Assembly: GCF_023055435.1 (NCBI RefSeq)
Contig: NW_025963797.1
Coordinates: forward strand, 558,001-621,810
DNA from: Haliotis rufescens
Lineage: Eukaryota
Reading direction: 5' to 3'
Length of the DNA stretch: 63,810 nucleotides
Every line of letters starts with the position of its first letter. Within the stretch, counting starts at the first letter, position 1. A model generated the notes under the pieces. It was not told the DNA's origin and searched no databases. It was given only the letters and a program-made list of their open reading frames with translations. The translations under genes and the position numbers were made by a program. Of this stretch, positions 19,719 through 57,419 are shown one piece after another.

Positions 19719-22700
19719 ATGTCCACTCTGGTGGTTGTGCACATTGCCTATCTGATCATGTCTACAGGTAAACATTCTGATATTAGTTAAATAGTGAGGT
19801 GATGTGAAATGGGGTTTAACGTCGCATCCAAGATTATTGCACTTATATAGCGACGTGCATGTACGGGTGTGTGTTTGTGTGACTGCTTATACTATTCCGG
19901 ACTGATGCCGATTATGGTGCTAGCTGACTTAGATGACATGCCACAGTTTAACATAAATACCCCACTCAGACACAGTATACTGACTCCGAGCTGACCAGTT
20001 CTTGTTTTAGTCCCTTAATGCCGAGCGCCAGACAGGGTAACAACAAGTACCATCTTATAACGTCTTTTGGTATGACGCGGCCGGGAATCGAACCTCGGAC
20101 CTTCAGCTCTCCGGGCAGACGCTCTACCACTAGCCCACGGAGGCTGTATTAGTTAAATAGTTAAAAATCATACCTCTTTGAGACTTGTTCTAACTATGCT
20201 ATTTTTTTGTGTTTATATATAGTTTTTAAAACAGTGAACATATCCAGGCCAGCTATATATGTGTTGTCCTTCTAGGGTTGACTTGGTAGAGATTCAGATC
20301 CTTGGTACCTGTCTTAATTTTCTGATGTATTCTTTGTATGATTTCCAGCTGCCATTTGCAGTGAAGACCAACACTGCCGAGACTGTGACAGCGACACTGG
20401 CAGTTGTCTGACCGAGTGTGACAGTGGTTATTTCGACCTGAAATGTAAGACTCCTTGTAACAGCAACTGTAAAAATAAGAAATGTAAATCCTTGAGCGGT
20501 GGCACAGAAGTATGCACAGAAGGTTGTATCCTAGGTTATCAGGGCGAGAGGTGCACCATACCATGTGACAGTCCAGCAGGTAACTGTACAGCTTGTGTTG
20601 GCGGTTGTGATGGAGGATACTGCCAGCTTAGTTCAACCTGTGTATCAGGATGCAGTGGTTCCTACTATGGATCTGACTGTAAACGATGTTCAAGAAGATG
20701 TAAGACGTGCAATGGTTATACAGGGATGTGTGAGGAGTGTTTTCCACAATATTTTGGGACGATTTGCGAGTATTTATGTGAACACTGTAGGGACACGTGT
20801 CAATTCGGATGTCTGCATGGCTGTATACGTGGCTTTTATGGTGCTGCCTGTGAGAAGGAATGCAGTACAAACTGTGGATATAGTCCAGTGATGCTGGACA
20901 ATAGCACTGCAGACACACGACCTGTACTTAATGACACAGTGGAATGCAATCAGTACAGTGGTGATTGTCGTCATGGATGTGTAGATGGCTGGTTTGGGCC
21001 ACAGTGCTCCTCATGTTGTAATATTAACTGTAGGAATGGGAGATGCAACGATGCAGGCGACTGTGTAGATGGGTGTGTAGATGGCTGGTTTGGGCCACAC
21101 TGCTCCTCACAGTGTAATGTTAACTGTAGGAATGGGAGATGCAAAGATACAGGCGACTGTGTAGATGGGTGTGCATCTCATCATTTTGGAAGAAACTGTA
21201 TACCATGCCCTGACAACTGTATCAACCACACATGTCATACAAGCCATGGAACTTGTGTTCATGGATGTACTAGTGGATTCTATGGACAATCGTGTAACAA
21301 CACGTGTGAATTCTGCCTTGATGGAGAGTGTGACCAGATGACAGGAATGTGTTTCAAAGGCTGCAACACTACCGGACACAAATGCACACCTATCTGCAGG
21401 AACAACTGCACTGTGGACGACTGCCAATCATGTCAGGGTGAGTGAATATCAAGGGAAAGCACATCGATGTGCATCATAACTGAAATTCAAATGATGATTC
21501 ATAGTATGTAGATTATTGGCAATGCATCATGTTTTGCGGTTATGCCACTCAGATCAAGGTCGTTTATATTTCCTTTTGTAAATGAACCCCCTACATGGTC
21601 TAGTGGTAGAGTGTCCGCCCAGAGAGTGGTAGGTCCGGACTTCCATTCCTGGACGCGTCGTACCAAAAGGCGATAAAAAAGATGGAACCTCTTTAACGTT
21701 AAGGGGTGCTACCTATTTCCATGAAACTGCCATTTTCTGCCTATACATTTAAAACAAAATATATTTGTGTATCTGTCATAGTCTCGATACTTACAATTGT
21801 AATACTATATTATGAAACACATTGCACAGACAAGATTTAAAACCATCATTGTCAAATATTGGCTTTCCAGATGAGAATGGGATGAACACGGCATTCGGAC
21901 TGTGGACTGGGCTTACAGCTGTGGTCATTGTGATTGTGATGCTAGCATGCCTGTGTTCCATCAAACGTTGGAGAACTAAAAGGTACCTACATCAAAAGTA
22001 GATAGTGCCATATCTCTTGCAATAGCTGGCTAATGATTCGCAATTATCTTTACTGTAATTCAGACAAAACCTGACACTTATTGAAATGTACTCTTCACAC
22101 TTGAATCAATATGCCAGTTCACTCAATTTTGTGAAGGCACTTCGCAGCTTCTGTTGCCATCTAATATTCCTCTTTATTATTCAGAGCTCAACAATCGGCA
22201 ACTGTTCAACCCAATGACGAAGGCGTTCAGGGTGATATATATTATGTAGAATACCAGGCTATCAACAATTATTGGCAGATCAGAGATGAAGATATAGGCA
22301 CATCCTGTGTGCCACCAGCTATGAAGCAAGAGGAACGTGGGCAAATACTCTCCATGCCAGTGTTGGCAGAATGTTTTTCTACAACAGGTGGTGGAACATA
22401 CAGTGATGCTTCCGAGAGTTCTGTTGGAGACACACAGTCCTACACTCATATATCACAGGATGTTGCAGGCAGTGGTGCAACCCAGAGTTCTGTTGGAGAC
22501 ACACAGTCATACACTCATATATCACAGGATGTTGCAGGCAGTGGTGCAACCCAGAGTTCTGCTGGAGACACACAGTCCTACACTCATATATCACAGGATG
22601 TTACAGGCAGTGGTGTAATCCAGCGTTCTGCCGGAGAGAACCAGCCCTCCACTCATATATCACAGGATGTTTCAGACGGCGAATCATCCCAGAGTTCTGC

Positions 22701-23139
22701 TGGAGACACACAGTCCTACACTCATATATCACAGGATGTTGCAGACAGTGGTGCAACCCAGCGTTCTGCCGGAGATAACCAGCCCTCCACTCATATATCA
22801 CAGGATGTTGCAGGCAGTGGTGCAACCCAGCGTTCTGCCGGAGATATCCAGCCCTCCACTTATATATCACAGGATGTTGCAGACAGTGGTGCAACCCAGC
22901 GTTCTGCCGGAGATAACCAGTCCTCCACTCATATGCCACAGAATGTTTCAGACGGCGAATCATCCCAGAGTTCTGCCGGAGATGTCCGTTCCTACACGCA
23001 TATGTCACGGGCCATGGCAGATTCTGATTCGTCCCACAGTTCTGCAAGTGATGCTCAGGCCTACACCCGACTCTTGCGTGATGTTTTTGTTAATGATCCC
23101 AAGACAGTTGTGAGCTATATATCACCCGTTCATAAATAA
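19719..23139 (+). CDS. EGF-like repeat single-pass receptor 1 (MEGF10/SREC-like), 734 aa; join(19719-19767,20349-21437,21871-21982,22185-23139)
   Basis: All introns GT-AG with compatible phases (1,1,2). Signal peptide MSTLVVVHIAYLIMST, Cys-rich EGF/laminin-EGF-like modules, TM GLWTGLTAVVIVIVMLACLC followed by KRWR, and an open Ser/Thr-rich tail with Tyr motifs. Confidence 0.85.
19796..20146 (-). mobile_element. tRNA-derived SINE family C (Meta/RUDI-like core) with 15-bp TSD, in intron 1 of receptor 1
   Basis: TSD TATTAGTTAAATAGT at 19781-19795 and 20147-20161. A/B boxes and (CACCT)n-like tail. Confidence 0.85.
22417..23080 (+). repeat. Coding 69-bp (23-aa) tandem repeat, ~10 units, in the receptor 1 cytoplasmic tail
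   Basis: Unit (V/A)GDTQSYTHISQDVAGSGATQSS, in frame with the TM exon. Confidence 0.9.
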
Positions 23140-25680
23140 ATACATTTGTATTTTGTAACTTTAAGTCTGTTATGTACTTTGTCTGTAATTCAAATCTGAT
23201 ATTCAGCTCACTTCACCTCCCTATTTTGATCATACACCTCGTAGCATCACTATTGTGATATAGTGATTCATAAACACTTGCTCATGACGAAGTCGTTTGA
23301 TATCATCAACTGGATTTTCGGCAGATATTTATCAGGACGATTGAAAGGGTTTATTCGTTTTTATTAAACTGTTTGGAGAGTCAAACAGTTTTTCCCGGAA
23401 GTGTACAATTTGATAACCACCCTTAAAGCTACAAAGTGACGTTTTCTGGTATATGTGCAACAAAGCAAGTGTATTTGGGCGTTTAGGTTTCACCAAAAAG
23501 AAGCCTTGCATATGCTTTTCGATTTCTCGACTTTCTACATAGTACACAAAGTATCTCCCTATAATATGACTTCACCATTGCCTGGTTTAATATTATGGCC
23601 AATTACACCTTATACATAATCTAACCTTCACTGTATATGTTATGCTGTGTATTATGCTATGCTTTAAAACTGTATACAATTATCTAATTTTATGTATTAC
23701 TACATGAATTCTCCCATGTTTGCCCCAAATATGACTCTATATATTGCCTTATAAATTCCTTTATATATTACTCTGGGAATTACCCAACAAATGTACTGTA
23801 TTTTAACACTCACCCTGTATATTTTGATATCAACTCACTCTACATTTTGTGTTATACATTACTCAGATATGTACCATCTAATTAATGTGTGTATCGATTC
23901 CTTTTGAAGTTATGTCTTCTTGTAAATAAAATGTACATATGTGAAATTGTAATGGCTGATTCAAGATTGCTCGATTACCCGATCAAGACTCCATTGTTCA
24001 CAGGTCGCACGGTAGGGGTACTGCTGTGCACCTTCAAGCAACAAACAGGGACTTCAGTTTTATGCAAAGTTTAACTTTATGTCACAACTAGTATAAATAA
24101 CACTATGTACTACACGAGTCGGTTGCCCTAAGCATTATTCTAACGACACTTACTCAGATAATGAAAACACTTGCGATACATGATCCGGAGCAGTCAACTA
24201 CTGTGCCAATGCGATTGGTCTGAACTCGCAACGGGAGACGTCTTTAAAATTAACAGTGATCTAAGCCTACCAAATAATACTTGTCTAACCTGCAGACATT
24301 GGCGTCTCTGAAGATGCTCATGCTAACAACCACTGACGTATGTGTTCATGATATCAACCACTTATATACCAGGAGCAGAATCGAGTAATTACAGGCCGCC
24401 GTGAATAAACATTCACTTGTTATCTGATGACCAAATTGCTAACAACTGACACGAAAGTATGTGTTTTATGAGTTACATTTGGAAACTTTGGTATGAGAAC
24501 CTCGAACCTTCCGTTCTCCGGGCGGACGCTCTACCACTAGACCCCGGAGGTTGTCCGTCGGTATGAGAAGCCATGTTGATCACAAGTACTTGCATAGTAC
24601 ACGGACACAGTAGTATGAATGTTGTGAATGTGTGACTGTGCCCTTCTCTTTGACTTCATGAATGTCCCGTCAGCATAAAACATATTCAGTGCACGTTGAT
24701 GCACGTGTAGATATTCGCGATTCCAACTACAGCTTCACGTAAGTGGTTTCAGGGATCTTTATCTGCCACTGGTGGAGAGTCATGCCACGTGACTGATTAT
24801 ATAGCATTGTATACACTTCAAGTTGACACCCCACATATATGTAGCATAATCTAGGCCAAGTCATTCCTTAGGTGTGGGTAGAATGGCCCAGAGGGGTGGA
24901 AGGTAGTCAGCAATTTGATGAATAAAAAAAAAGCACAGGTTGGAGCATTGATTCAGATTATGTCTGACAGTAAACTATATTTCTACCTGACTGAAGCTAG
25001 CCCTGTCCCCTAACCCAGAGTAGGCTACACTCATGCTGTTTTCCCGGGAAATAAGACTGCCTGGGCTGTAGGGGAGGTATTGAGTGTACAGGTAGGTGGA
25101 CAGATCCGGGGTTGTGTTTGGGAGCTGCTGATGTCTGCGGTGAGTAGCGGGGTTGACTGAGGAAAACGTATCCGTTTTTGAGCACGAAGGTGATGAAATA
25201 CTTGATATAAAGACGAATCGACTCTAAAATATTGTTTACTCACGATTTGTTCCAGGTTGTAACATATTTTCAAAAGTACGAAATCGCCACAAGTTATTAA
25301 AGCACTCCTTGACTATCGGAAAATTATAATAAACGATCTTAAGTTGAAATGAATAAAACTAAATCTTCATATGTACAAACATATGTACATAGAGTGCATA
25401 CATATGCATTTGAAATATATTTTGAACTGAACAGCAGAGCGAGGTTTCAAATGTTACCTTTAGAGTGGATAAATCTACAGGTAACATAGCTTGACCTTGT
25501 CAGTTTATGGAAGAACACTTGTGAGAACAAAGGGAGAGATCTAGACGAGCACCTCAAAGTATTGTGTTCAACGAATAGCTTATCAGTGTATCTGATGAAA
25601 AGTGAATACGTGGTGAATACATACAGGATTGTTCTCTTCCAAGCAGGCTTCATATGAACAAGTAGATAACTCTTCAAGCC

Positions 25681-28600
25681 ATGCTGAGGCGAAGCAGAGT
25701 TCTCTATTTCAGTGAGTACATCCTTTCAGCACAAAGGTATGCTTCAGTATGATGCATTGACAACATGAGCAGCAAATTAATGACTCGGTTACCGCGAAAT
25801 TCGTACAGTAACGTGAAAGAGAAGGTGTAATTCAAGAAAACCAAATGACCAATTATGAATATGGTCCATAGAACCATCACCTAACTATGACAAAACATTC
25901 AACAGTAAATATTATAACTGTATCACCCTGTACTATAAATACCGACATGGCAATAAATATGGTCGATATTCTGTTATTTAAGATTTGCAGTAAATATTTT
26001 ACATTCAATAAAATGAAAACACAAGCTTGTGTTATTTATCACAGTCGTTTTAGTATATGAAGCCACGTTTAAATTTATAGCAACATACACAATACATGTG
26101 CATAAACAATTTGTTGTAAGGATGCGATAAGAACAAACATTAATCAATGGCACGGTCAGTGATAGATGCACGAAGTGGTTATCTGAATGTAAGCATATAT
26201 ATCTGAATAATTACACAACGTTTGCACGTTTACACAGTGTCACTACTTGATGTGCGTTTCTTCTGGGTTTCTTCCTTTCTTTCATTCATCTTTATTTTGT
26301 CACATTTTCAGCATTTCTGATTCATGCAGTCGCAGCATGCGAGTTTGGCAAATATGGGGATAATTGTGACAAACGCTGCTCCAAAAACTGCCAAGGTAAC
26401 CTACAGAGGAACCTCACACACTGTAACAAGGGAACTGGAGAGTGCTCCGATGGCTGCATCACTGGATGGTATGCTACTCAATGTGACCAAGACTGCGGCA
26501 AGAACTGTCTGGACAACGTCTGCAATCATGGGAATGGACGGTGCACAAGGGTATGCAGTGGAAACCAAATAGGGGATTTCTGTGAGATCCCTGAAAGTGT
26601 GGGATGCTAACCGGTTTCACATTGTTACTTCAGTTGAGGGATGGCACAATAGAAATCCTGATTGTCATGCAATGATTCCTCAGTGCAAACAATTGTTGGG
26701 CATTGCATTTTGCAAAAATAAGATGTAAATTCAAAAACACCCGTCGTATTAGAAATATGTTTTTGGTTTAATTTTCTCTCTAAAGTCACAATTATTTATT
26801 ATCTCATTTGTTTTTGTTTTTGTTTTTGTATAACGCCTCACTCCGCAATACTCCTACCGTATTAGGTCTTATCACACATTTGATCCCAAATGGATGTGGT
26901 ATATTCCTTAATGAGTACTCATTTCAGTGCATCAATACACAATCAGTTTGTATTATGTAACAAAAACAAAAGTTTAACAGTGGTTTTAATGTTACATATT
27001 TGTTAACCACTAGTACATATCATCTACCTATTTAAACGAACACATACATTAAGTAACATATTCATAATTTTACATATATTTTTACCTCACAAAACTTTGT
27101 AACAACATTGGAATTTGGCATTAAGAACATACTACAAGTAACACCTCCATTTATCATAGAAACGATATAAAAAAGATGACTCAATTGAACAGTTGTCCAT
27201 AGGCAATGTTTATTTCGACAGACATCAAGGTCAAAACAGATGAAACAACAGAACAGTCAACGGCACACGTCGCAGTGATCATTACAATCTCCCTTGTGGC
27301 AATTAGTGTTATCATCGCCGTAACCGTCGTCATAACATGTCGACGCCAGGGAGACAACAGGTAAGTTAAACAACATTTCATATAATCTTTTTGAAAGCGT
27401 GACTTGCATTTCTAAGATTCTTTCTGTGTACTCTTACACAAAGCCTACATGGTTTAAAAGAAGATGACTCTTTAATAGAACTGAGACAAGGGTGTAAAAA
27501 TAGAAATGCAAGTTATGTTTTTGTTGCAGTGAAAAGACTAGTCATGATGAAATGTTATTGTTACTGTCGAGAATGGTGACGGTGGGTTCTAATACATGTA
27601 CTCAGTTCTAATACATTTTGCAAAACAGGTTATCATTTAGAATTACCCCGTACTCGATGCCAGAAGTGAAAATCTGAACAACGCCATACGTATGACAACA
27701 ATTGTTCCTTAGTAAAGTGGACATGAATGACATCTTGCCAGCGATGTCTAATTGCTGTTCTTGTTTTTTTTCTCCTAAAGAGCTGTTCCCATAATAGGTT
27801 TAACTTTACATCTCTTACAATAAACGTCTGAATAACCTCAATGTCACGAGATGGTAAAACAATTCGAGTTTGTGGAAAGGTGGATGGGACAGTCGTGATT
27901 CCTTACAATAAACTTACTGCTTGTGACCTTTACATCAGTGGACGTATAGTGTACTTGTTACCCACTTGGTGACCATGATTGTGTCTATCAAATTACTCTC
28001 AGAACTAATGATAGGTTCTTATTAATTGCAGAAGAAAGTCAACCAGGAGGCCAAAAGGTATTGTAGCAAATTGCATTAGAGGGTTAGATATCTTCACACA
28101 TTGTAACTGCCACTGGGTAATTGACCCTGGGAAACACCACCATTCTGATTCCAAGCTCCGCATCCCGCCCTCTGGGAAACTGATCCCAAAACCTTTCGCA
28201 AACACAAGGCATCAGCACTATTTGAAATTGACTCAGAAATATATTAGTAGTTGGACTCGTACGGTGGCCTGCTTTAAGTGAGCCTGTTTTAGTAGGATAT
28301 TATGCTTGTGGGTTGTTGTGTGTCTTTGGTCGATTTTGTTCACGATGGCAACAGTAGGCCTAAACTTACATCTAGCACATACATGTATATTTACAACTCT
28401 AGAACTGTACTCAGTATGTCATTGTCCCACAATGATGGATGGAGGCTGGTTTTATGCAACACAACAACAATCATAGTTAGCAGGATGCATTTCTGTTATC
28501 TCCTTGAGTGGCTGATGTACAGAGTAGGGTCGGGTTGGCGGTTGATGATAGTTGTATCTCTTCGTTCCTCGTTGTAACCTACTACTGTCATAAGGTCCGG

Positions 28601-29470
28601 GTTATAATTAGTCCTCAGCAACACATGTTTGTCGTAACGGTGATCAGCATCGCTGCCTTAGAAGGTGCATACCGTCGTTCCTCATTTGCAGAGATATATG
28701 CTCATGTTGTCAGTCACTAGATTGTCTGTTCCAGTCTCAATTATGTACATACCAACATCATATAGCCCCGTGGAAAACCATCGTCCTTAGAGTCAGTCAC
28801 TTCTTAAAAAAAACATTGACAAAGACCATCACACATAAATCATGAATATCTGTCCGAATCAATATATTAACACGTTTACTTAATGCAAAAACACTATGAT
28901 CCAGTTGAATTGATCCTATTGACATATCTCTATGTTTCATAATTGGGACGTCACCAAATTTGACCTTTCAGTAAAAAATACCGGAATGGTACTCTGTGTC
29001 ACTGTTTACAGGCTGACGTCGCATGGCAGGGGTATTGCTGTGTTGCGTCAGGAAATACAAACAATTTATATGAATGACGGGTTCTACCGGTAGAGCAGGA
29101 CATCCAAACCCTTTTTGCGAACATCTGGTGTCATCACTGATTTTCAGTTGTCCATTCACACAATTTCATCTGTTATTTGCCCTTTAAACCAAATTGAATC
29201 TGTTTTTGCAGAAAATCTAGGTGGATTATTCTCTACCATTGTCAATTTATGTTATATTGATAAGCTTACCCACTGAATCAGCACCATCTGGAAACCATTT
29301 TTAATTCTACTGAATAACCAAAAAAAGTTAAGTTAAATCTAAAAATGTATTTTTAATTAACTTCCTAATAATATGGTCGCACGCTATGCCCTTATGTGAT
29401 TTTTCTTTTTTTCTTTTTTTTCCAGCTGGTACTGACCCTGAAAATCCTGAAGGCGTGCCTTTACTGCCAA
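25681..29470 (+). CDS. Receptor 2, N-terminal exons: signal peptide + EGF-like + TM + linker; join(25681-25711,26312-26596,27222-27360,[27781-27797],29426-29470)
   Basis: MLRRSRVLYFT|FLIHAVAA signal, then CEFGKYGDNCDKRCSKNC...CSDGCITGWYATQCDQDC. TM VAVIITISLVAISVIIAVTVVITC-RR. Linker exon GTDPENPEGVPLLP. The 17-nt micro-exon is tentative. Confidence 0.7.
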
Positions 29471-29797: not shown

Positions 29798-32785
29798 GTA
29801 GGTGTAGAGACGTAGATGATGATGACGGTATATGTGTCATACGTTCTGTAGCAGCAGCTAGGGTCACACAAAACATGTTACTTGTGAACTCGTGTGTACA
29901 CTTATGATTTGGTGGTTGCTTATTCTCGCCTACATTCAAGGACACTTTAAGAATGGGCAGGATGATGCCAGTGTGTCAACTTATTAGTTAGGCTGGCATC
30001 AATCAGAAGTATATGTGTATTGTTTTGAGGGATAAACTTGATCAATGTTGCTTGAGGTGGATACATCTGAGTATGTGAGACTGAAGGAGAATACTAACTG
30101 TTAAAGTTCTTTGTGGTTTATCTGAATCTTTATTCAATGGTCATGCCTTTTTTCCAAAGAGAAGGCATAATGATAAACCAGAAGTGCTAATACCTCTGTT
30201 CTTGAGGTTGATATAGGAATTGAACTTTCGTAAATTACATTACATTGGGCAAACACTTTCAAAGCTTAAAGGGATGTCATTAAGTCGTGAATGCTGAGAA
30301 ATTTGGCATCGTGTTTGCGGCATGCACATATTTTCCTTTTTATAAAATGTACTGCAATGGACATGTACATATTCAAAGCAATATAATGTTACAAAACCGG
30401 GAATGTTTATACCTTGTGTTTAGGATGGCTATTGGTGAAGTCATCTTCCTCCGCACTTGGTAAAGTGAAACGGTTCATAAAACATGGTTCAGTTGGGAAT
30501 GTTTTCGCAATTGAGGATAGTTCGATGGCAAAATGTGCTTGAATAAATCTGATCTTAAATTACACTAACAGACAGAGCACAATCAGTATCCAAGGCATCT
30601 GGCCAAAAACGCAAACGTATGCTTTCATAGCCTCAAATTTATCTAGGACCATCTAAATCGTTTGAACATTAAATGATTTTCTAGCCACAGGTTTTGGGGA
30701 ACTTTTGATAAAAACAGAGCGTTCATCAAACGTAAAAAAACATGCAAAACCAAAAGCTTAGCATGGTCCTCACAGGGGTGGGGGGTCGTGGGTCCAGTGT
30801 CAATTGTTGATGTAAAGTTGTAACATTTCATACTTTAAATACGTATTTGATAATAAAGCGGGAGTTCATATAAATATCTCCCTTTACACTGAGTGAGGAC
30901 TTGTATTGCGAGTAGTATTGACATTTATGAAGTGTTCAGGGATAGGTGCCAAATTTGGGAGAGACAGTCATGAACTCTTTGTTTGAAATACTCAAAAACA
31001 ATTTGATATCACCAATCTCTTGACCTATTTATGTAACATATGATGTTTAAATGCTCAGAAATAAAGTAAACCTTTCATCACTGGTTATATGACCAAGGTT
31101 TTGATTCAATCAATTGATTGATAATAATGCTTTGGTAGCCTGTACTGCTAAACATAATTGTATATTTTGACCATGAGAGTTTGGGAGTGCAACAAAGTGC
31201 TAAGATATGTCTAGTTATTCACAGTTTCTATGTGTTCTCCTTTAAAATATAATTTTTCATAATGTCTAAATAGTCTGCCCCTTCTTGTTTCAAGATCGAT
31301 ATTCATTCCTGTAGCATAACATAATTCTTCAACACAAGTTATTTCTTTCTTAAGTTTTTGTTTAATAAAATGTTATATATACATGTATGTAATTCGCTAA
31401 AATTCGAATAATTATATTACCATAGTGATATACTTATGTTGTGCAGTAGTGTGGTGTGGTTTGGCGTATACTGTATGTGTTGTTTTACGCTTATTCTTGT
31501 TGCCATTGAAATGTGAATTCCAACGGTACTATATAAAACATCGAAGCAAAAATGTGATAAAACCAATGTACCGTTTCAGATGAGATTTGACATGAATCAT
31601 GTTCTAATTTGTTTTCTTCAGGATATAATGTGCTTTCCCACATTAATAATCAAAGGAAAGATGAGTATATATATATATGTCATGGATAGAGGTAGGCTTC
31701 ATATTTGACGGACGTTCAATACGTTTTGCAAGTTGCAAAACTTATTGAACTTATTGAACGCCCCTCGTGGAAATCAGTGACAACACAAGGTGTTCGGGAG
31801 AAGGTGAGCACGTCCTTGCCCTACCGGTAGTACCCTCGTATTCACACAATTTGCGTCAAAATGTTGGTATTTATTGCGTGACGCCGCACAGCATTACTCC
31901 TGTCTTGGACGGCCAAAAAGGACCCCAAAACAAGGCGCGTCTCCCTTAGCGCTCACATCGACAGATACTCAGAAAGATTGGGAATTCGATATCTTAAATA
32001 GTCAGTTTTTGTTCTTTAAAATGAATGCAGCTGACGCTATGTAGAGTAAATCGTAAAGCTAATGACGAAAATAATTAGTGCAACCTTGTGTCTACCATTA
32101 AGGAGGTAAAGCAATGTGTATGATTAATATTGGTATGTATTGTGTTATTGTTAATGTTACCAGTGTCATTGCAACGCGCTAACGTGACGCAATGACAGTG
32201 TTGTGCATATGACATATATGTGTTGTAATATAAACGGTATCTAACGGGTACGAATGAAGTAATTTATTTGTAACTCATTTAAACTTTACATATTCTCTAA
32301 GTTGTTAAAATGTGGCGTATGATTACAACATTAGTAGCTGATGATTCGAGCATAGAATGTTCTTTCAAAGTGCCCCCTGGAAATAAAGTGCGCATCTTCC
32401 TCCAATATTGATTAGAAGAAATATTCGATGCCGATTCTAAAATCGTGTCGAAATAGCATTTAAATACACAGACATCACCGAGTTACAGTTGTATCAAACG
32501 GAAATTCAGCTTCACACTCTGTTCAGCGAAGGTGAGCCGTGAAGGAAACCCGCGAGACGATTTACGTTGACTGTGTGATTTCATAGGAACCAGCATATTG
32601 TTTATCTGTTATACAATTAGTGGTAATTACTGTCTTCTATGCTTCTATGCCTCTCTGTTGTTGTGTGAAAAACAGTAGTGTCGATCGGGAGTAGATTATT
32701 CACCTATGGGTTGAGTGGACCTTGCAGATTATGATTACTTTGTCTATCTGTTTTGTTTTCTGAATGTCTCCATGTTGTCTTCCAG

Positions 32786-35700
32786 GTATGCTGGAGTGGG
32801 AGATTCAGAAGACAGAAGAATTATTTGAAGAGACTGCTATCTACCATAAAGTCAAGGAACGTTTAGGGAACTTTAGACATGTGACAATATCTGGTGCTTC
32901 AGGGGACGGAAAGACGTCAATGGCGCTGATGTTGGGGTCAGAATACCAGAAGAAAGGGTATGAACTATATTTTGTCCACAACATTTCAGAATTCGAGTTA
33001 TGTAGTGAAATACAAGGTAAATTTCTGTGTTTCATATTTGATGACATATTTGGAACAGTAGAAATATCAACCGATTGACCTCACCTCAGACGGATTTTAG
33101 ATATTCTCAACTCTTACTTTGAGCAGGTGGCATCTAACTTTTCTAAATCATTCCAATCTAATGGAAAACTTGACTCTCATTCAAATCACAGAGAAAAAGA
33201 CATGGGAAACGTTCGTGTCATATTTACCACAAAATCATACAATCTTGACCTGGGAAAAATACACTTGGGAGAAAATGAGTGTGTGTTTTTCAAAGGAGAT
33301 TCAGTCATTGACCTTACACGGTCTGAGAGTCGCTACACAGTCGAAGAAAAGAAACAGATGTTTATAAAACATAAAACTTATAACAGTAACAGTAGTTATT
33401 TTGATTTAGACAAAATGTGTGGCATTAAGGATCAACTGTTTTGCTTCCCGCTCACATGCAAACTGTTCTTCAGTTTTCCAAAATCACATGATCAATATGA
33501 AGATTTTTTTTTAAGACGCCTCTCAGGGCAGAACTGGAATCTCTGCTAAAAAAAGGTGAATAACAAGTCATCAGCACTGATCCTTATGTTGCTTTGTGAA
33601 GGTAACCTGAACCTTTGCCATTTGGAATCAGGCAGCCAAACGCTTGAGAAACATCTCTCCACAGTCTCAAGTGTAGTTAGTGGTGTTGACAGTGCAGAGA
33701 TTATCAGTTGCGTGAAGGGATTTTTCGGTACATTTTTTACCAAAGCAGACATCACCATTATTTCACACCCAGCAATCTATGATGCCTGTGCCTTTGTCTA
33801 TTGCAAAATCAATTGTGCTTTTGTATTACGACACTGCAGCATACAATTCCTGTACGAACGTGTTCAGGCCCAAACAGTACCTGCATGCGAGACTGATGAG
33901 GATAGGCATGTGATCTATGTATCAGATGCCTACAATGACATCATTGCTTCAAGACTGGCAGGGGCTGTGAGGGAGGGGGACTATCGGATGTCTATCATGC
34001 ACCCTATATTGGAAAGACATGATATAGTGGATAAGGTCCTTGCTGCAGTCAAACCCTTCCTGACTTCAGTGACATATGAACATGGTAACAACGTATTTCA
34101 TTATGCCTGTTATTCGGGAAATGTGTACATTGTACGTAAACTCCTTCCTTTTTGTGACATCAACAGTTAAGGAAGCTGGTTGGACGCCAGTAATGATAGC
34201 TGTGATGCTGGGGCCGGAGGGTGTCTTTCACATTATTGTGTCAGAGGGAGCTGACATCACACTGGCCGATAAAGAGAACAATAGCTGTCTTCACCTGGCA
34301 TGCATACGCATACATAGGTCATTAGTAGAATACCTACTGCAAAATAATGACATAAACATCAGAGGAAAAATGGGATGGACACCACTGATGACTGCAGCTT
34401 TGATTGGAAGGAAAGATGTGTTTGACTTGTGTCAAAGGGTCAAAGGGAGCTGACATCACACTGACTGATGACGACAATAACAACATTCTTCATCTGGCAT
34501 GTCAGGGAGGAAATAAGCCCTTAGTAGAATTTCTACTGCCAAAGACTGACATAAACATAAGAGGAAATATGGGACACAGACCACTAATGAATGCAGCTTC
34601 GAGAGGACAGAAAAATGTGTTTGACTTCCTTGTGTCAAAGGGAGTTGACATCACAATGACTGATGACGACAATAACAACATTCTTCATCTGGCATGTCGG
34701 GGAGGAAATAACCCCTTAGTAGAATATCTACTGAAAAACACTGACATAAACATAAGAGGAAGTATGGGACGGACACCACTAATGAAGGCAGCTTGGAGTG
34801 GAAAGAAAGATGTGTTTGACTTCCTTATGTCAAAGGGAGCTGACATCACATTGACAGATGACGATAATAACAACATTCTTCATCAGGCATGCGAAGGAGG
34901 AAATAAGCCGTTAGTAGAATATCTACTGACAAAGACTGACATAAACATAAGAGGAGAAATGGGACAGTCACCACTAATGACTGCAGCTTTGAGTGGAGGA
35001 AAGATGTGTTTGACTTCCTTGTGTCAAAGGGAGCTGACATCACACTGACTGATGACGACAATAACAGCATTCTTCATCTGGCATGTTTGGGAGGAAATAA
35101 GCCGTTAGTAGAATATGTACTGACAAAGAATGACATAAACATAAGAGGAAAATGGGACAGACACCACTAATGAATGCAGCTTGGAGTGGAAAGAAAAATG
35201 TGTTTGACTTCCTTGTGTCAAAGGGAGCTGACATCACACTGACTGATGACGGCAATGACAACATTCTTCACCTTGCCTGCAAAGGTGGAAATAAAGCCTT
35301 AGTAGAACATCTACTGCCAATGTGTGACATCAACTGTCGGGGGCACAAGGGTTGGACACCAGTAATGAAAGGAGCCTCCAGTGGGAATAAGGATACATTT
35401 GATCTCCTCCTGTTAAATGGAGCTAACCCATCACTCTCTGGTGATGACAATGATACTTTACTCCATGCAGCCAGTAGAGGTGGAAACATTGACATTGTTA
35501 GACATGTTACTGGTGACTTTGACATCAACACACGAGGAGAGAATGATGCTAGCTGTGTGTGGAGGTCACACTGATGTAGTTGACTTCCTGGTGGACCATG
35601 GTGCTGACGTCAACCTGGTGGACAATGATGGAGATAGTCTCCTCCATTTGGCTTGTGAGTCAGGAAACTTGAAGATGGTTAAGCATGTCATGTCCTATTC

Positions 35701-36275
35701 TGATAGATAACTTTGGTTGGACACCGTTGGCAATGGCAGCTGTGGAGGGAAACTATGCTGTTTTTCAATATCTTAAAGGCCTAGGAGCAGATGTGACACT
35801 GGCAGACAGGGCAGAAGATGGTGTGTATACTCTGGCCCTCCAGGGAGGATGCAGGGGGATCATCAAGGAGTTAGGACGAGAGGAACATTCAGGGAAAAGC
35901 ATCACACCATGGAATGAATTGATGAAGTCACTAGTGACATCACAAGTGGACTACCTAAAGACATATTCACAACTAAGTCCTGACCTTGTTCAGAAAGATC
36001 AATTTGGAGATAGCTTACTACATCTGGCCTGTCGAGGAGGGAACAGACAGTGTGTGGAGTATCTGCTCCCATCCTATGACATCAATGTCCGAGGTCGCTA
36101 TGACTGGACACCGGTGATGATGGCAGCTGTGTGTGGCCATGGAGATGTCTTCCAGTTGCTGGTGTCTCACAAGGCGGATCTGTCTCTAGTCTCAAGTACA
36201 GGGGAAGATATCACCTCCCTGGCTCGTCGTGGCAACAACGACGACATTGTCAAGTACCGATTGGATAAGTCTTGA
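32786..36275 (+). pseudogene. Large terminal exon: nSTAND3-like P-loop NTPase + helical region + ~20 ankyrin repeats; disrupted; probable C-terminal exon of receptor 2
   Basis: Phase-1 acceptor TCTTCCAG at 32785. Walker A ISGASGDGKT, Walker B FIFDDIFG, then CFPLTCKLF and SHPAIYD motifs. Ankyrin consensus GxTPLMxAA..G..LLLxxGAD. Lesions: TGA 33076 and frameshifts near 33510, 33550, 34168, 34430, 34998, 35150, 35543, 35705. Confidence 0.85.
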
Positions 36276-42875: not shown

Positions 42876-44746
42876 ATGGCACCGACGACAATTCTGAGCG
42901 TAGCGTGCATAATGGTTTACACTCGTGGTAAAGACATTATGAATATTTCCAATATGATAGATTTTATTATTTCAAGTTTCTCGATTTCTGACATGTTATT
43001 CATTTATATCTGTAACATGCGCTGTTCTATAGATAACATCACTTCTCCTTGTATCATGCTCAGCTGTAGTAATAAAACTGAGGATGTCATATCGTCAATC
43101 GCAAGGGCCAGTTTTAATTATTTAACATATTAAATCCACACATTGCATGCTTATAGTTTATTGGCTTTTTTGCAGAAAAAATGTTTTGGTAATATACATT
43201 TTTACCATCATTTTCAGCTGCCAAATGTAAAGGACACCAACACTGTTCAGACTGTGATAGCACCACAGGGTATTGCATCTCTGAATGTGATCCTGGATAT
43301 CGCAACGAAAATTGTCGAAACAAGAAATGCAAACTGTCAATAAATGGCAATGATAATTGCACTGAGGGTTTTGTCCCGGGATACCAAGGCCTGGGGTGTA
43401 GTCGGCCATGTTACAACCCAGGAGATGTTTGTACGGCATGCCCAGGTGGGTGTGATGCAGGATATTGTCAGGTGGGCTCCTCCTGTGTGTCTGGGTGTGT
43501 GGACTCCTACTATGGGTCTGGCTGCAAGACATGTCACAGAGGATGTAAGACATGCAGCAGAATAACAGGAACATGCAGGCAGTGTCATCCTTCATTTCGT
43601 GGTCTGAAATGTGAACAGGAGACGAACACTACCAGAGGTTGTGAAGGTGGTTGTGTACCTGGACATATAGATAGAGACTGCAAACATTGTTCTGACAAAT
43701 GTCTCAATAAGACCTGTCACCCTAAGAACGAACACTTTGATACACAATGTAATCCAGGATTTTATTGTGAACACTGCGACAAGACATGTGGTGTGTGTAT
43801 TGATGGAGACTGTGATCAGATGTCAGGGATGTACTTCAGAGGGTGTAACAGGACCACACATGGATGTGAACCTTCCTGTAGAGCCAACTGCACTTTAGCT
43901 GAATGTGACATTGAGACATGTCCACAAGGTAATGCATTGTACGCAAGGTGAATATCTAACCAGATTTTCTTTCTAATATATAAAAAATAGAGGTGGGAGC
44001 AAGCTTCCCTTTACACATGCCAAATTTAGTTCAGGCACAAGGCTTTTGCTGTCCCTGTTCTGGGTTGATCTACATGAACGGACTGGAATCACCCATCTAT
44101 GTTGTACTTGAGCAGGTTAGACTTGAGCGTATGAACCACTGATAACGTGTCTGCCCGAATTTAACACTTTCAGCAGCTGCAGTTGATGTCAACACAAAGT
44201 TAACAAAGGACATATTCAAAATGAGCATTTATTGGTTCTTGTTCTGTTTGTATGTAGATGAAGAGAAGAGTTATGAGCGGGATATCCATCAGTCCATCAA
44301 CATGGGGCTGTTGACAGTGATGTGCCTCTTTGTGTTCTGCATCCTGATCACCGTTTGCGTCTGCTATTGCCGAATTATGGCCTCACAACGGTAGGGTTTC
44401 ATTCTTTCATTCATTCATTCATTCATTTATTCATTCATTCATTCATTCATTCATTCATTCATTCATTCATTCATTCATTCATTCCACTTGACTAAGTGTA
44501 ATTATTCAATAATATGGGAAGTCATTTAAACCGTCCATCCATATAAGTGTACGTAGTATAAACTTATCATTTGACATCAATATATGTGGCGTTTGGGCAG
44601 TTTGTAGAGAGATTCCAGGCGAGGAGGCAGTTGACTACCGAGATGAAGCAACCAGAGAGAGGCTAGCATCGATGTTTATAAGATCACAGCATACATACTG
44701 TGACGTAGACGAGAGTGACATGGGGCCAGTGATCGTCTTCCTGTAG
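42876..44746 (+). CDS. EGF-like repeat single-pass receptor 3, 344 aa; join(42876-42927,43218-43928,44258-44390,44608-44746)
   Basis: GT-AG introns, phases 1,1,2. Signal MAPTTILSVACIMVYT. EGF exon paralogous to receptor 1 but with lost Cys and in-frame deletions. TM MGLLTVMCLFVFCILITVCVCYC. Tail ends HTYCDVDESDMGPVIVFL*. Confidence 0.75.
44400..44484. repeat. (TTCA)n microsatellite
   Basis: Direct reading. Confidence 0.95.
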
Positions 44747-46090
44747 ATGTTGACAGGGACACAGAGTAGAGACTGTGGTGTAGACGAGAGTGACATGGGG
44801 CCAGTGATAGTCTTCCTGTATATGTTGACAGGGACACAGAGTAGACACTGTGGTATAGACGAGAGTGACATGGGGCCAGTGATAGTCTTCCTGTAGATGT
44901 TGACAGGGACACAGAGTAGAGACTGTGATGTGGACGAGAATGCAAGGGGCCAGTGATTGTCCTGTAGATCTTTACAGGGACACAGAGTAGACACTGTGAT
45001 ATAGACGAGAGTGACATGGGGCCAATGATTGTCTTGCTGTAGATGTTGACAGGGACACATAGTAGAGACTGTGATGTAGACGAGAGTGACATTGGGCCAG
45101 TGATTGTCGTCCTGTAGATGTTGACAGGGACACAGAGTAGAGACTGTGATGTGGACGAGAGTGACATGGGGCCAGTGATAGTCTTCCTGTAGATGTTGAC
45201 AGGGACACAGAGTAGAGACTGTGACGTAGACGAGAGCGACATGGGGCCAGTGATTGTCTTCCTGTAGATGTTGACAGGGACACAGAGTAGAGACTGTGAT
45301 GAAGACGAGAGTGACATTGGGCCAGTGATTGTCGTCCTGTAGATGTTGACAGGGACACAGAGTAGAGAGTGTGATGTAGACGAGAGTGACATGGGGCCAG
45401 TGATCGTCATTCTGTAGATGTTGACAGGGACACAGAGTAGAGACTGTGATGTAGACGAGAGTGACATGGGGCCGGTGATCGTCATTCTGTACATGTTGAC
45501 AGGGACACAGAGTAGAGACTGTGATGTAAATGAGAGCGACATGGGGCCAGTGATTGTCTTCCTGTAGATGTTGACAGGGACACAGAGTAGAGACTGTGAT
45601 GTAGACGAGAGTGACATGGGGTCGGCTATTGTCTTCCTGTATATGTTTACAGGGACACAGAGTAGACACTGTGATGTAGACGAGAGTGACATGGGGCCAG
45701 TGATTGTCTTCCTGTAGATGTTGACAGGGACACAGAATAGAGACTGTGATGGAGACGGGAGTGACATGGGGCCAGTGATTGTCTTCCTGTAGATGTTAAA
45801 AGAGACACAGAGTAGAGACTGTGATGTAGACGAGAGTGACATTGGGCCAGTGATCGTCTTCCTTCAGATCTTGACAGGGACACAGAGTAGAGACACTGGC
45901 GTAGACAAGAGTGACATGGGGCCAGTGATCGTCCTCCTGTAGATGTTGACAGGGACACAGAGTAGACACTGTGGCGTAGACGAGAATGACATGGGGTCAG
46001 TGATTGTCTTCCTGTAGATCTTGACAGGGACACAACTTAGTCGCTGGGGTGTAGACGAGAGTGACATGGGGGCAGTGATAGCCTCCATGT
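44699..46090. repeat. 75-bp minisatellite (~18 units) derived from the 3' end of receptor 3
   Basis: Unit TGTGACGTAGACGAGAGTGACATGGGGCCAGTGATCGTCTTCCTGTAGATGTTGACAGGGACACAGAGTAGAGAC. The first unit contains the stop codon of the gene. Confidence 0.9.
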
Positions 46091-46094
46091 AAAC

Positions 46095-49045: not shown

Positions 49046-49280
49046 GTGAGTGAGTGAGTGAGTGAGTTAGTGTTTTACGTCACATCGGCAATATTTCAGC
49101 CATATCGTTACAGGAAGTTATTTTTTTTAATACATATATCATCGACGGACAGTGAAATTACTAGAGTATCACAGATTTTTATTTTTAACTAGCATACAAA
49201 CATAAAAAGATATCACTTTAAGTAAAGGTGCAATATTTAAATGGGTTATAGATCGCCAGCAGTTGAAGGTTGCTAGGGGG
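49046..49280 (-). mobile_element. 5'-truncated non-LTR retroelement 3' end with 12-bp TSD AGCCCGTATTGA, inside a local duplication
   Basis: (ACTC)n tail. TSD near 49034-49045 and 49281-49292. The uninterrupted paralogous site is at ~48796-48810. Confidence 0.7.
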
Positions 49281-50859: not shown

Positions 50860-51118
50860 TTGCTTGTTGTTTAACGTCACGCTCAGCAATATATCAGCTG
50901 TATGACTGCGGTCAGTAAATACTCGAGCCTAGACCAGACAATCCAGTGACTGACATCATTAGCATCCATTCAGGCAATTGACATGCATCAAACAAGTCAC
51001 CTAAGCCATCAATCAGCCTGACCACTCCGATCACGTAAGTCGCCTCTTACGACAAGCACAGTCGCTTTTTACGCCAAGCACTGGTTGCTGAAGACCTATT
51101 CTGACCCCTTCATGGGAC
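50860..51118 (-). mobile_element. SINE family B
   Basis: Reverse match to 11006-11281. Confidence 0.75.
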
Positions 51119-51434
51119 TAAATGACCAGGAAATAGACAAGACATGACAGTGTTGCCGATTCATCTCTGAGGTGTAAATAGCAATCGTCAACGCCAGAGA
51201 ATATCCAGTTTTGATAATATGCCGATACATATTCCATTGGGTGTAAAAGGCAAAATAGTAATGACTCTCACTTGAATGGATCACTGAAAATCAGGAATGG
51301 CACCATGGTGTTTGTTGCATGTTCATTTGAAGAAAACGCACTAAACAGGTTTGATTATAGTAAAACGTTTATCATTTTAGAATTATACATTTAACTAAAC
51401 TGAAAATAAGGAAGAACTTTTTTTAATATGAGAG

Positions 51435-52890: not shown

Positions 52891-54367
52891 AGTCTCACAA
52901 CAGACTCGGCTATGTACAGATCACCGTCATGTAGGTGCAATATTGACGGGCGTGACGTTTAACAGCCAACACATGATATACTTTATTTGATATTTTGGCC
53001 GTGCACTAACATTGTTCCTTAATGATGAATCTGAGTGGTTAGTAAACCTTTAAAAACAAACACGGCCATGTCGATCGCATGGGTTTATTCAAATGCAGTT
53101 GCTTTTTCAACAAAAACGTTTGGTAAGATTTCCTTGTAAATAAGGAATGAAAAAGTGAATCCAACTAATTCGTTGACTAGTTTCATAAATAAGCTCTGGC
53201 AACGAACACACTACGCTGTCTGTTTTCTCCCATCCAAGGGCTATCCGGGATTCAAGTAAGTAGCATTACATACAGCTGTGTCTTATTCCCATTGTGTGGC
53301 AGGAACATGTTTGTTATCTTAGCTAACAAAATAATGCAATGTTTATTGTATAAATTCATGATCACATATTTTTCCTCAGAACAAGTATGATCGAGTTCAT
53401 TGTGCTGTGCTTGATGTCTCTTGTTTCCGCACAAGGTGAGAATGACGGGGGATAGTTCACCTTAATAAACCTACAGTAGGCGTTGATGTAATGTTGGTAG
53501 GATGTATCACACATGAACAGTGACGGCAATATGAGTCAGTCGTTTCCGTTTTACTATTATGTGTGTCTCTATCAAAACAAGACAAGTTTGACGTTTGATG
53601 TTTTAGAGCTTAATGTAGAGGTGTAATGCACAGGTAGACGTATCTTATTCATTATGTAATATACTTGAATGTATCGTGCATACTAACATAAGTGTTTAAA
53701 TTCAATTCTCAGCGATGAATACAAGTTCCGTTTCTCCTGCCCCACCATGCAAGGACAACCAACGTTGTTCACAGTGTGACAGCACGACGGGATATTGCCT
53801 CGAGTGTACTGCTGGGTATTTTGATACGAGATGCAGTTCTGTTTGCAATAAGAATTGTTTGAAAAGGAAATGCACACTTTCAAGCAACGGCAATGGCAAC
53901 TGTACTGTCGGTTGCGTATCTGGATACCTAGGTACAGCCTGCGAAATAACATGTGACAATCCAGGAGGTAACTGTACAGCATGTCCAGGTGGGTGTGATG
54001 GAGGATATTGTCAGCTGGGCTCCTCATGTGTGTCTGGATGTGTAGACTCCTACTATGGGGCTGGATGTAAGACGTGTTCAAGTAGGTGCAAGTCCTGAAA
54101 CAGGACGGCAGGAGAATGTACTGAGTGTCACGCTCCATATGTTGGTCCGAAGTGCGAATGTCCACCCTGCAATGGAACATATGAAGATTGTGAAATGGGT
54201 GGCTGTAAACAAGCATCGTGTGAGTATGTCTGTAACCGATACTCTGTTCTAAGCTTTGATATAAATGTAGGTAAACGTTCTTGATAACCCATCACCTATG
54301 AAGGATCCTTGAAAAGTATTCATTACATCCAAGATGGTCCTCCTTATGTAGCTCTAAACATGTAAGA

Positions 54368-54693
54368 TGTGAGGTGAGGTGAGGTGAAATGGGGTTTAAC
54401 GTCGCGTCCAAGATTATTGCACTTATAAAGCGACGTGTATGCACGTGTGTGTGAGTGTGGCTGCTTGTACTAGACCGGACTGGTGCCAATTCATAGTGCT
54501 AGCTCACGGAGATACCATGCCGCAGTTTAACATGAATATCCCACTCAGACACAATATACTGACTCCGAGCCGACCAGTCCTTGTGTTAGCCCCTTAATGC
54601 CGAGCGCCAGACAGGGTAACAGCAAGTACCATCTTTTAACGTCTTTTTGTATGACGCGGCTGGGGACGCTCTACCACTAGACCACGGAGGCGG
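54368..54693 (-). mobile_element. SINE family C with 13-bp TSD TAAACATGTAAGA
   Basis: TSD at 54355-54367 and 54694-54706. Body co-linear with 19796-20146. Confidence 0.85.
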
Positions 54694-55831
54694 TAAACAT
54701 GTAAGACACGTGGCTACCTGGGATTGTATGCATGGTTGTATACCTGGATGTTACGGTAAAACTACTACCATACTCGTGTAGTCTATCTGAATGTTGTTTC
54801 TCATCAGATGACAGGAACGTGTACAAGGACACTACGTAGGCGTACATTTCCCTCATACAGACACCTTGCTAATAGATGAATGTTGTGAAGACACTAAATC
54901 CTCAGTTTCTAATATCACACTTGTAAAACTGCTTAACTCAGTTACTTCCTCAATACAGTACATCACTATGCATGTATCCCCGGACACGTATGCTGGAAGG
55001 AAGGACGCCTAAATGGATCGGGATGTCAGTCTCGAAAGCCAGTCTGTCATGGTTCACAGAGAGTTGCACATAATACATCACTGGACTGCTTAGCCCAGAC
55101 TTGATTGCGTGCAGGCCGTCGTTTTAGAACGGGAGCATTGCTTAGTGCGACGTTAAAAAACACACCACACAGACACATTATCTGCATGCATGCCACGCAC
55201 ATGTGTAATGCACCTTAATATTTTACAATGTATACTTGTTCCTGGCGCTGTATGACTATGTTCTTTATTAAGGTGAACCTGATATATTCGCTATTTATTT
55301 GCTCAAGGACATGAAACAAGAGCTGATCTAGTGTGCATGACACTAATGACTAGTTCATTAAACATGTTTAAATATTTAGTAGCTCGTCTTTTTGCCAGAT
55401 GAGAATGACGATCAGAAGACAGGCAGTGTGCTGACTTGGCTGTTGGCATCACTGCTACTCCCTGTATCGGGCATCTTGCTGACACTCTGTCTCTGTTACT
55501 GCAAGCGTTTCCCCAAACAAAGGTGAGTTTGTCGCAGTGTTATGGTAACAGTCACTACATGACCCCTGTAGTGTGTAGTATGTTTATTGTACTTGGGGCT
55601 AAACAATTGACTCATGCTTCAAACCATACTTACTATTCACACCACTATGACTTATTTTTGAGTTTTGTCATGATATGTTAGCAATTCATACCAGTCAAAA
55701 CTTCATTTTTCCACTTATCAAATCAACGTAATTTAGTTAAAATGTTCAATGGAGGAAATTGTTATCATACCAATAGAAGACAGTTAACTCCCCGACAGGT
55801 TATTATTGTGCAATATTCACTTGTGGTTAAT

Positions 55832-56096
55832 GTTTGTTTGTTTGTTGTTTAATGCCGAAGTCAGAAGTATTCCAGCTATATGACGGCGGTCTGTAAATAA
55901 CCGAGCCTGGACCAGAAAAAGCCAGTGATTAATATCATGAGCATCGATTCATGCAATTTGGATCAATGACATGCATCAACCAAGTCCGCGAGCCTGGCCA
56001 CCCGATCCCGTTAGTCGCCTCTTATGACAAGCATAGTCGCCTTTTATGGCATAATGGGTTGCTGAAGACCTATTCTACCCCGAATGTTCACGGGTC
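55832..56096 (-). mobile_element. SINE family B
   Basis: Full-length reverse match. Confidence 0.85.
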
Positions 56097-57419
56097 TCTG
56101 GTGACTAAACGATAATAGGTAATGTACGCATGAGAAAATGCAGTATATGCACAAAGATCCTAAACACATACATATCTCTGTGTTGCAGGGAACAGGAGGA
56201 GCACCAGGATCAGATGCATCAAGATGAGGTGGAGTATCTGCAGTACTTACCTACAGTACAGGGAGATACACTTAATACTAACCGTCATTCGAATCATGCC
56301 TATTATGACGTTATCGATGGCGAGAAGGGTCCCGCCATTGTGTTCCTGTGACCGCTGATTATATGTTCCCTCGTTTATGTTGTATGACTTATCTATACAC
56401 AACTGTTCACTGTCTATTGAGCTATCAATTCCCTATTTTGTCAAGCGTCAGGTCGCGCTAGTTGTTGATGGCGTTGCTTTGTCGGTTTTATCAGTGGTGA
56501 TCTTCTGTTTGTTATTCCGCCTTCATTTAGCTGACCCTGTTCCCAAAGTATACAGCACTATACTACAACATTAACGTTAAAAACACGTGAAGTATATATG
56601 GTGAGCTTCAGATCGATCATGATGCCATGAACATTGATGCCACTACCCTATACAGTATACGTCTTTACTACCAGCTGTTAATACGTGTGTCTATTAGCAA
56701 TGTGTATATGGTGAGCTTCACATCGATCATAATGCCATGAACGTTGATGCCACTACCCTATACAGTATACGTACACGTCTATACCAGCTGATAATGCATG
56801 TGTCTATTAGCAATGGTGATATGAATCCAAAGTTGTTGTTATCATCTAACGTGTATAGAATACTATTTGTATTGTGTTAACAAGTGTCTCAGTCACGAAA
56901 GACGAGACGTAAACTTCGGGTCGTGTCGCTTCGGGTCAATGTTGTGTGTGTTTGTATTAATGTGCCATAAATTTGCAAGTAGTGCACACTAATTCTTAAT
57001 TTTCATGAAAGATTGAAAAAGATCAGGTGTGATATACTTGTACATTATAGTAATAAACATTCTACACTGTACACACGCTTCTGTTTGTTATTATTTATCT
57101 ATAAACTGTGGTAAAAAACAATTGTGCATCCATTAAATCACCACAACTTATGCAATTGCTGTGTGGTACCTCTATTTACTTGCTATGAAGGGTGATGTCA
57201 CTAACAAAGTAGCTTAAGAATATAATACACTCCAATGTATTATAGGCCTATACGGGTAGGGAGTTCATTCTGGAAACAAACATGAGAACTATTCGGCACA
57301 GTCTTCAACGATGTTCCTAATAGTGTAATACATTGCACATGGTGTACACACATTGAAACAACAGTGTCTGGATGCAGGTTTATTCTCGCATATATTCGTG
57401 TATAATGTTACAAAAATGG

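Follow-up and report, generated by a model that had tools for sequence, protein, structure and literature searches.

Genes of the window

We analysed a stretch of 63,810 nucleotides of Haliotis rufescens DNA, hereafter the window (G000:C19:558001-621810, where G000 is the genome and C19 the contig), whose nearest named proteins are those of Haliotis (abalone). It holds four genes, A to D, for predicted membrane receptors, which fall into two families, A-type (genes A, C and D) and B-type (gene B). The first-pass annotation of this DNA had assigned all four to one common plan, in which a signal exon, one large EGF-like exon, a transmembrane (TM) exon and a tail are joined in phases 1, 1 and 2. 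This plan was confirmed for genes A (19719-23139), C (42876-44746) and D (53387-56351, all on the + strand), each of which has four exons with GT-AG introns, namely a signal exon ending in phase 1, one Cys-rich exon (1-1), a TM exon (1-2) and one tail exon. However, gene B departs from it by a split signal peptide, three linker micro-exons and a STAND exon in phase 1. The exons are as follows; tail classes are described below.

Gene A
19719..19767, +, signal-peptide exon, phase 0 to 1
20349..21437, +, the whole EGF-like ectodomain in one Cys-rich exon (67 Cys in 362 codons), phase 1 to 1
21871..21982, +, TM exon, phase 1 to 2
22185..23139, +, T1 tail in which the SYTH module is expanded as a 69-bp repeat
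Gene B
25681..25711, +, opening exon with the leading half of the signal peptide, phase 0 to 1, placed by DNA match to a paralog's first exon
26312..26596, +, two-module EGF-like exon opening with the end of the signal peptide, 285 bp, phase 1 to 1
27222..27360, +, TM exon, phase 1 to 2
28032..28057, +, linker micro-exon 1, phase 2 to 1
29426..29470, +, linker micro-exon 2, phase 1 to 1
31622..31691, +, linker micro-exon 3, 70 bp versus 66 in a paralog, frameshifted, with a stop
32786..36275, +, terminal nSTAND3 and ankyrin exon, starting in phase 1, broken (stop at 33076, frameshifts)
Gene C
42876..42927, +, signal exon
43218..43928, +, ectodomain exon, open, with a 7-codon deletion
44258..44390, +, TM exon, phase 1 to 2
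44608..44746, +, short tail of class T2, C-terminal GPVIVFL
Gene D
53387..53435, +, signal exon
53713..54270, +, ectodomain exon, interrupted by a single premature TGA at 54096
55399..55522, +, TM exon, phase 1 to 2
56189..56351, +, short tail of class T2, C-terminal GPAIVFL

The three kinds of tail sequence described earlier were all found again, that is, a tyrosine-motif repeat of 69 bp in gene A, an nSTAND3-ankyrin module at 32786-36275, and ends in -IVFL in genes C and D. The reading frame of gene A is open throughout; its repeat (8.8 copies) is an expansion of one motif of the family's long tail, and SYT[HR][IML] is retained, with the tyrosine in place, in six of ten units. Gene C is also open, and its in-frame ectodomain deletion costs two Cys. 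The final 75 bp of its coding exon, with the stop, are tandemly amplified about 18 times (window 44697-46079), and the stop is lost in some of the units.

Two members had already been described as disrupted, and the disrupted genes are B and D. In gene D, the TGA lies at a position that is Cys in two paralogs. Disruption of the same exon by a repeat insertion was rejected, as the insertion is intronic (about 54368-54693). The D-type TM exon is single-copy in the window; in paralogs, the 3' 89 bp of such exons, donor site included, form tandem arrays of 4 to more than 20 copies (G000:C19:187553-187825, C46:212-214k and C56:182-184k).

The last exon of gene B encodes nSTAND3 (Pfam E 5e-17) together with ankyrins. 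Besides the frameshifted, stop-bearing linker exon and the TGA at 33076, the gene has several further frameshifts, and contigs of relatives carry indels at several of the damaged sites. Gene B in the window is a dead pseudogene. A direct splice from the TM exon to the STAND exon was rejected since it would be out of frame, and three candidate exons (25019-25139, 27530-27581 and 32472-32531) were discarded for lack of support from paralogs and models. Because the STAND exon starts in phase 1, the STAND-ankyrin module is not a swapped tail on the A-type chassis.

Module exchange in the A-type family

A search of the genome with the first 150 residues of the A exon gave at least 150 matches, all 150 scored out of 905 candidates. 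The stretches fetched contain 58 A-type exons, and a TM exon was called for 55 of them, of which 53 end in phase 2; phase 2 was favoured by a bonus in the finder, two of whose picks were the TM exon of B and were corrected by hand. After the removal of 12 genes with no tail called or with an upstream tandem exon, and with four labels set by hand, 46 A-type genes remained. Their tails, called by splice scoring in this analysis under the guidance of RefSeq models, belong to class T1 (24 genes), T2 (13), T4 (seven) and T3 (two), and the same classes occur in RefSeq models of several Haliotis species. The T1 tail is long and multi-tyrosine, with a YQxI/YWEI pair followed by MPVLAxCF and SYTHL and the ending VxYISP. 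The T2 tail is short and has Yx[ED][IV] before a terminal GPxIV[FY]L, a hydrophobic end that we take to resemble a PDZ ligand.

The distribution of T2 on the ectodomain tree requires seven changes, at least five of them forced by strong branches, and T1/T2 pairs recur in at least five ectodomain clades. A single clade of T2-bearing ectodomains was rejected (approximately unbiased test, p-AU 5.8e-5). Tail labels are more clustered on the ectodomain tree than in shuffles (12 versus 19.3), as expected because near-copies are present.

The positions of exchange can be seen in the DNA of close pairs. C605_33913898 (T1) and C605_33928420 (T2) share 98.3% identity over a stretch that starts upstream of the ectodomain exon, includes the TM exon and reaches about 580 bases into the phase-2 intron; their tails are 20% identical. 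Similarly, C605_45432750 (T1) and C605_45419146 (T2) are 92-97% identical up to about 430 bases into this intron. In the inverted pair C46_1619251/1636144, the identity is confined to the ectodomain exon, as in gene conversion. In the three tail-differing pairs, the ectodomains are 93-95% and the tails 20-26% identical, and the paired-receptor-like architecture proposed by the first-pass annotation is supported in this family, with near-identical ectodomains on differing tails. Furthermore, in a duplicate of the window cassette at C19:162-215k, the TM exon and tail of C and the start of D have been lost, and the ectodomain of C is joined to the TM exon and tail of D. The breakpoints in the phase-2 intron and the exchanges before the TM exon show that exchange is real at either intron flanking the TM exon. 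The earlier proposal that outputs are exchanged at the phase-2 intron thus stands for the family of A, C and D, in which two sister pairs diverge inside that intron, and it has to be widened, since other exchanges occurred at the phase-1 intron before the TM exon.

An A-type ectodomain on a STAND tail was found in none of the 46 called genes and in none of the 10 TM-bearing matches among 150 STAND representatives; the A-type protein search reached 690 residues only, too short to show such a tail.

The structural model of the gene A ectodomain (predicted local distance difference test, pLDDT, 82) has its best fold match in SCARF1 (8hna, E 4e-5) with a low TM-score of 0.16, and the same search also returns the EGF modules of Notch and laminin. 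There was no Pfam EGF match in A-type ectodomains, and a PDB sequence search with the gene A alignment gave no matches.

The ectodomain of some A-type relatives (P0201, P0216 and P0245) has gained an Ig domain (PF07679). At G000:C603:920049-923442, C19:240990/242039, 675360/676410 and 818190/818901, and C40:308577/310138, one TM exon is preceded by an ectodomain exon present in two to six tandem copies, B-type ones among them.

The B-type family beyond the window

The genome gave at least 124 matches to the B exon and at least 124 nSTAND3 exon matches to the STAND exon; 59 of these 124 STAND matches were entered, and for 33 of the 59 a B exon in the same orientation lies no more than 70 kb upstream. 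Of 15 STAND-ankyrin exons that are B-linked or B-like, 12 are open over at least 1,130 codons and three are broken; one open copy begins 8 kb beyond the window. The order signal peptide, two EGF modules, TM, linker and nSTAND3 is also present in RefSeq models P0001, P0002, P0004, P0005 (H. cracherodii), P0020 (H. rufescens), P0045 (H. rubra), P0021 and P0024, and ankyrins follow nSTAND3 in RefSeq models of three Haliotis species. Each of the 13 STAND loci tested for it has a TM exon placed after the ectodomain and before the STAND. All of the 21 STAND exons and four ankyrin-only exons examined start in phase 1. The earlier view of STAND-ankyrin as an exchangeable tail of one chassis therefore cannot be maintained: this is a separate family, joined in phase 1 (21/21) and never found on A-type ectodomains (0/46 called genes). 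An apparently ectodomain-less STAND at C19:304k was rejected as such, as it has its own broken B exon.

Within the B-type family, the endings vary. Ankyrin-only exons come after the B-type exons of C605 and C568, and in four of five loci a TM stretch separates the two (the splice is predicted); on C46, B-type ectodomains stand with tandem STANDs lacking ankyrins (four exons). Walker A (GxxGxGKT) and Walker B (hhhDD) are canonical in 17 of the 21 STAND exons, and the four tandem-STAND exons on C46 read GK[KR] and FHD; the GxP motif of the helical domain reads GFP[LQ]. The STAND model (predicted template modelling score, pTM, 0.80) aligns over its full length, winged helix included, with MalT (Z 15.0, root-mean-square deviation (rmsd) 5.1, 316 aligned), NRC2 (Z 14.5, rmsd 3.6, 268 aligned) and 6mfv, and Foldseek gives a match to Avs5 (E 5e-6).

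The ectodomain and STAND trees of 12 B-type genes disagree (p-AU 0.049 to <1e-40 for six pairs, which were picked after the distances were known). The ectodomain tree is weakly resolved with respect to ending type, and each ending type may have had one origin.

Several soluble nSTAND3-ankyrin proteins (P0006-P0010, P0017, P0026, P0038 and G000:C46:7.01 and 9.07 Mb) have short beta-prone motifs just before the STAND exon, which to us recall the amyloid signalling motifs of fungal NLRs, by resemblance only. Tandem B-type ectodomain copies each open with the end of the signal peptide, an arrangement that would fit mutually exclusive variable exons.

Splicing was examined in an open paralog, L009, for which eight junctions were predicted. 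Probable-RNA contigs match four of these exactly (GT-AG), and a fifth roughly. All four runs contain the joint into the STAND exon, and one run has that after the TM exon exactly. A predicted 18-bp exon (5402-5419 of L009) was rejected, as the observed joint skips it.

Origin of the B-type architecture and linkage of the two families

A TM helix precedes the P-loop in the 10 TM-bearing STAND representatives, of which five have a B ectodomain, one is partial, and four are from oysters (Magallana gigas and Saccostrea). The oyster models (P0083, P0113, P0153 and P0158) have a signal peptide, a Cys-rich domain of no known family, a TM helix and nSTAND3; the Cys-rich domain is unrelated to the B ectodomain and falls in unnamed, mollusc-only clusters. 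A quick tree, computed without bootstrap, places the abalone TM forms within a set of soluble abalone-like nSTAND3 proteins, and three of the oyster forms beside proteins that bear HEPN. Judging from these sequences, the abalone and oyster TM-nSTAND3 proteins likely have separate origins.

An A exon lies within 35 kb upstream of 60 of the 94 B-like loci (40 tandem and 20 head-to-head, 13 of the latter within 7 kb) and downstream of 18, a count that is biased by the length of B itself and a linkage that duplication of the cassette alone could yield. The predicted complex of A and B ectodomains scored 0.30 against a mark of 0.34 in a prediction without alignments. At G000:C46:2.89-3.47 Mb and 1.60-1.62 Mb, head-to-head A/B pairs 3-6 kb apart are repeated, and the B partners examined end in altered-Walker tandem STANDs without ankyrins.

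Comparison with known systems

The A-type proteins resemble CED-1/Draper/MEGF10 and SCARF1 (SREC-I) in their predicted type I membrane topology, their EGF-like repeats and their tyrosine motifs, and RefSeq names their relatives accordingly. The motifs are of the YxxL/I type (YQAI, YWQI, YTHI and YTRL in A, YCDV in C and YDVI in D). However, the A-type ectodomain is encoded all in one exon, and the family has hundreds of lineage-specific copies. The A-types are not members of the Draper/MEGF10 family, as an EMI domain is absent (in A, C, D, P0172, P0177 and P0212 the repeats begin directly after the signal peptide, with no Pfam match) and NPxY, part of the usual definition of that family, is absent from the tails of A, C and D.

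Vertebrate paired receptors include Siglec-5/14, KIR, Ly49 and PILR. As in these, A-type genes whose ectodomains are almost the same but whose tails differ lie next to one another, and recombination or conversion keeps them similar; they differ in being EGF-like rather than Ig or lectin proteins, in having tyrosines on both tails and in showing no charged TM residue. The A-family is a clean invertebrate case of paired-receptor-like exchange, in which the breakpoints can be placed in the DNA.

The B-type proteins share with Avs5 (Sir2-nSTAND3-repeats), MalT, NRC2 and animal NLRs the nSTAND3 Pfam family, Walker A and B, GxP, the winged-helix fold and C-terminal repeats. In contrast to these, their N-terminal slot is filled by a signal peptide, an ectodomain and a TM helix, and their repeats are ankyrins. 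A Pfam search found neither NACHT nor LRR in them, and thus they are not animal NLRs in the strict sense. The available part of a preprint describes Avs5 as nSTAND3 with C-terminal repeats (bioRxiv 2025.07.08.663546). In anthozoans, membrane-bound NLRs have been outlined with three to four TM helices of a gap-junction-like region and NACHT-LRR (PMC3879445, available part); they too place a STAND-class domain at membranes, and the B-type differs by its single TM helix and predicted ligand-binding ectodomain. In Biomphalaria, the GRC/PTC2 clusters of single-pass TM genes control parasite resistance (PMC7494358). These clusters, likewise from a gastropod, consist of divergent genes for single-pass TM proteins and have both gained and lost members, although the text of that report mentions neither EGF nor ankyrin.

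The surface STAND receptor family is the most surprising element of this locus, even though the window itself holds a dead copy. In the accessible parts of surveys that counted NACHT-LRR, molluscs appear NLR-poor, with one each in Lottia, Crassostrea and Aplysia (PMC3879445, PMC9334734; the latter gives one NLR for Aplysia), whereas many of the at least 124 nSTAND3 exons of the abalone genome are wired to an ectodomain. We found no published description of the abalone A- or B-type families in listings and abstract openings, a coverage that leaves out most subscription papers and supplements, PMC7159879 mentions neither nSTAND nor molluscs, and none of the listed papers that contain the term nSTAND3 concerns animal receptors by its title.

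Possible function and alternative explanations

The window is probably one cassette of an abalone array with fast turnover. There, two interleaved families of predicted single-pass receptors would exchange modules by intron recombination and probably serve immunity or self/non-self recognition. For the A-types, binding of a surface ligand would lead to signalling by tyrosine phosphorylation, either of T1 or of the single Yx[ED][IV] of T2, so that each near-identical ectodomain with different tails could have two paired-receptor-like outputs. In the B-type, ligand-driven clustering outside the cell may release a STAND held closed by the ankyrins; this would nucleate an oligomer at the membrane, as a membrane-anchored switch, and might recruit cytosolic partners, possibly the soluble nSTAND3 proteins with HEPN or short beta-prone N-termini. 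More tentatively, it is possible that abalones and, separately, oysters have made a STAND ATPase the signalling part, on the cytoplasmic side, of a single-pass receptor that binds a ligand. Such a surface NLR would be functionally paired with the adjoining A-type tyrosine-tail receptors, and the degenerate tandem STANDs would be sensor or decoy partners of soluble nSTAND3 executioners. If functional, these proteins would unite immune sensing at the surface and in the cytosol within a single polypeptide, a combination that apparently arose twice in molluscs, and their genes would be candidate disease-resistance loci in farmed abalone and oysters.

Several observations weigh against this immune-array interpretation. 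The comparison of nonsynonymous with synonymous substitution rates (dN/dS) proposed by the first-pass annotation, here run pairwise on whole A-type ectodomain exons, gave 0.22-1.03, below 1 in 15 of 16 pairs and above 1 in one, with no domain-wide positive selection. By inspection, A, C, D and the three sister pairs have no charged mid-TM residue, so that the activating member of a classic receptor pair is lacking. Small contigs (C10, C40, C43, C56, C58, C118 and C291) hold near-identical copies that may be uncollapsed haplotypes, so that our counts are neither a floor nor a census. Three of the predicted L009 junctions are not among the joints listed, and the contigs compared there (four runs from three studies, guessed to be RNA, as none of the sources listed is recorded as such, and placed at 90% likeness) may derive from paralogs. 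Gene A is almost uncovered by probable-RNA contigs, and no junction of A, C or D of the window was observed in RNA. Finally, the N-terminal slot of known STANDs is the effector, which favours a reversed direction of signalling.

Under such an inside-out arrangement, which we regard as unlikely, the ankyrins would detect a pathogen product in the cytosol or act as guards of the tail of a neighbour, the STAND would oligomerise, and the clustered ectodomain would be a flag to other cells, perhaps read by linked A-types. It would account for the TM-ectodomain standing in the slot that HEPN or short motifs occupy in soluble relatives, for the frequent A exons upstream of B-like loci, including the close head-to-head pairs, and for the likeness to Avs5, whose C-terminal repeats are the proposed sensor in the accessible part of that preprint (10.1101/2025.07.08.663546). 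However, the ankyrin-only endings and the ankyrin-less tandem STANDs fit an output role of the cytoplasmic part, and the linkage is explicable by cassette duplication alone.

It is decidedly improbable that the array serves non-immune recognition, such as adhesion, gamete or larval settlement cues or neural wiring, with module exchange as a by-product of repeat-rich tandem duplication. The mostly low dN/dS, the numerous broken copies and the many developmental roles of EGF receptors would agree with this, but a STAND of NLR/Avs type, T1/T2 pairs in several ectodomain clades and rapid birth and death would be typical of conflict systems. It is very improbable that the EGF-TM-STAND fusions are artefacts of gene models in which a small EGF-TM gene has been merged with a soluble STAND gene downstream. 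Models P0012 (EGF-TM only) and P0003 (STAND-ankyrin only) do split one locus type, and none of the contigs covers the transcript from end to end. However, the linker exons that separate TM from STAND are conserved and compatible in phase, the TM-linker, linker-linker and linker-STAND joints were observed, fused models exist in three named Haliotis species, and the TM exon was in place at every locus tested.

Other features of the window

A 189-codon open frame at 13550-14116 (+) contains three repeats of the W-x-x-A-N/S type and had no match in Pfam and PDB sequence searches. The stretches 9631-10286 (-), 1-2729 and 11538-13021 comprise presumed fragments of Tc1/mariner-like transposases, of which the piece tested had no Pfam match, together with long minisatellites containing open frames.

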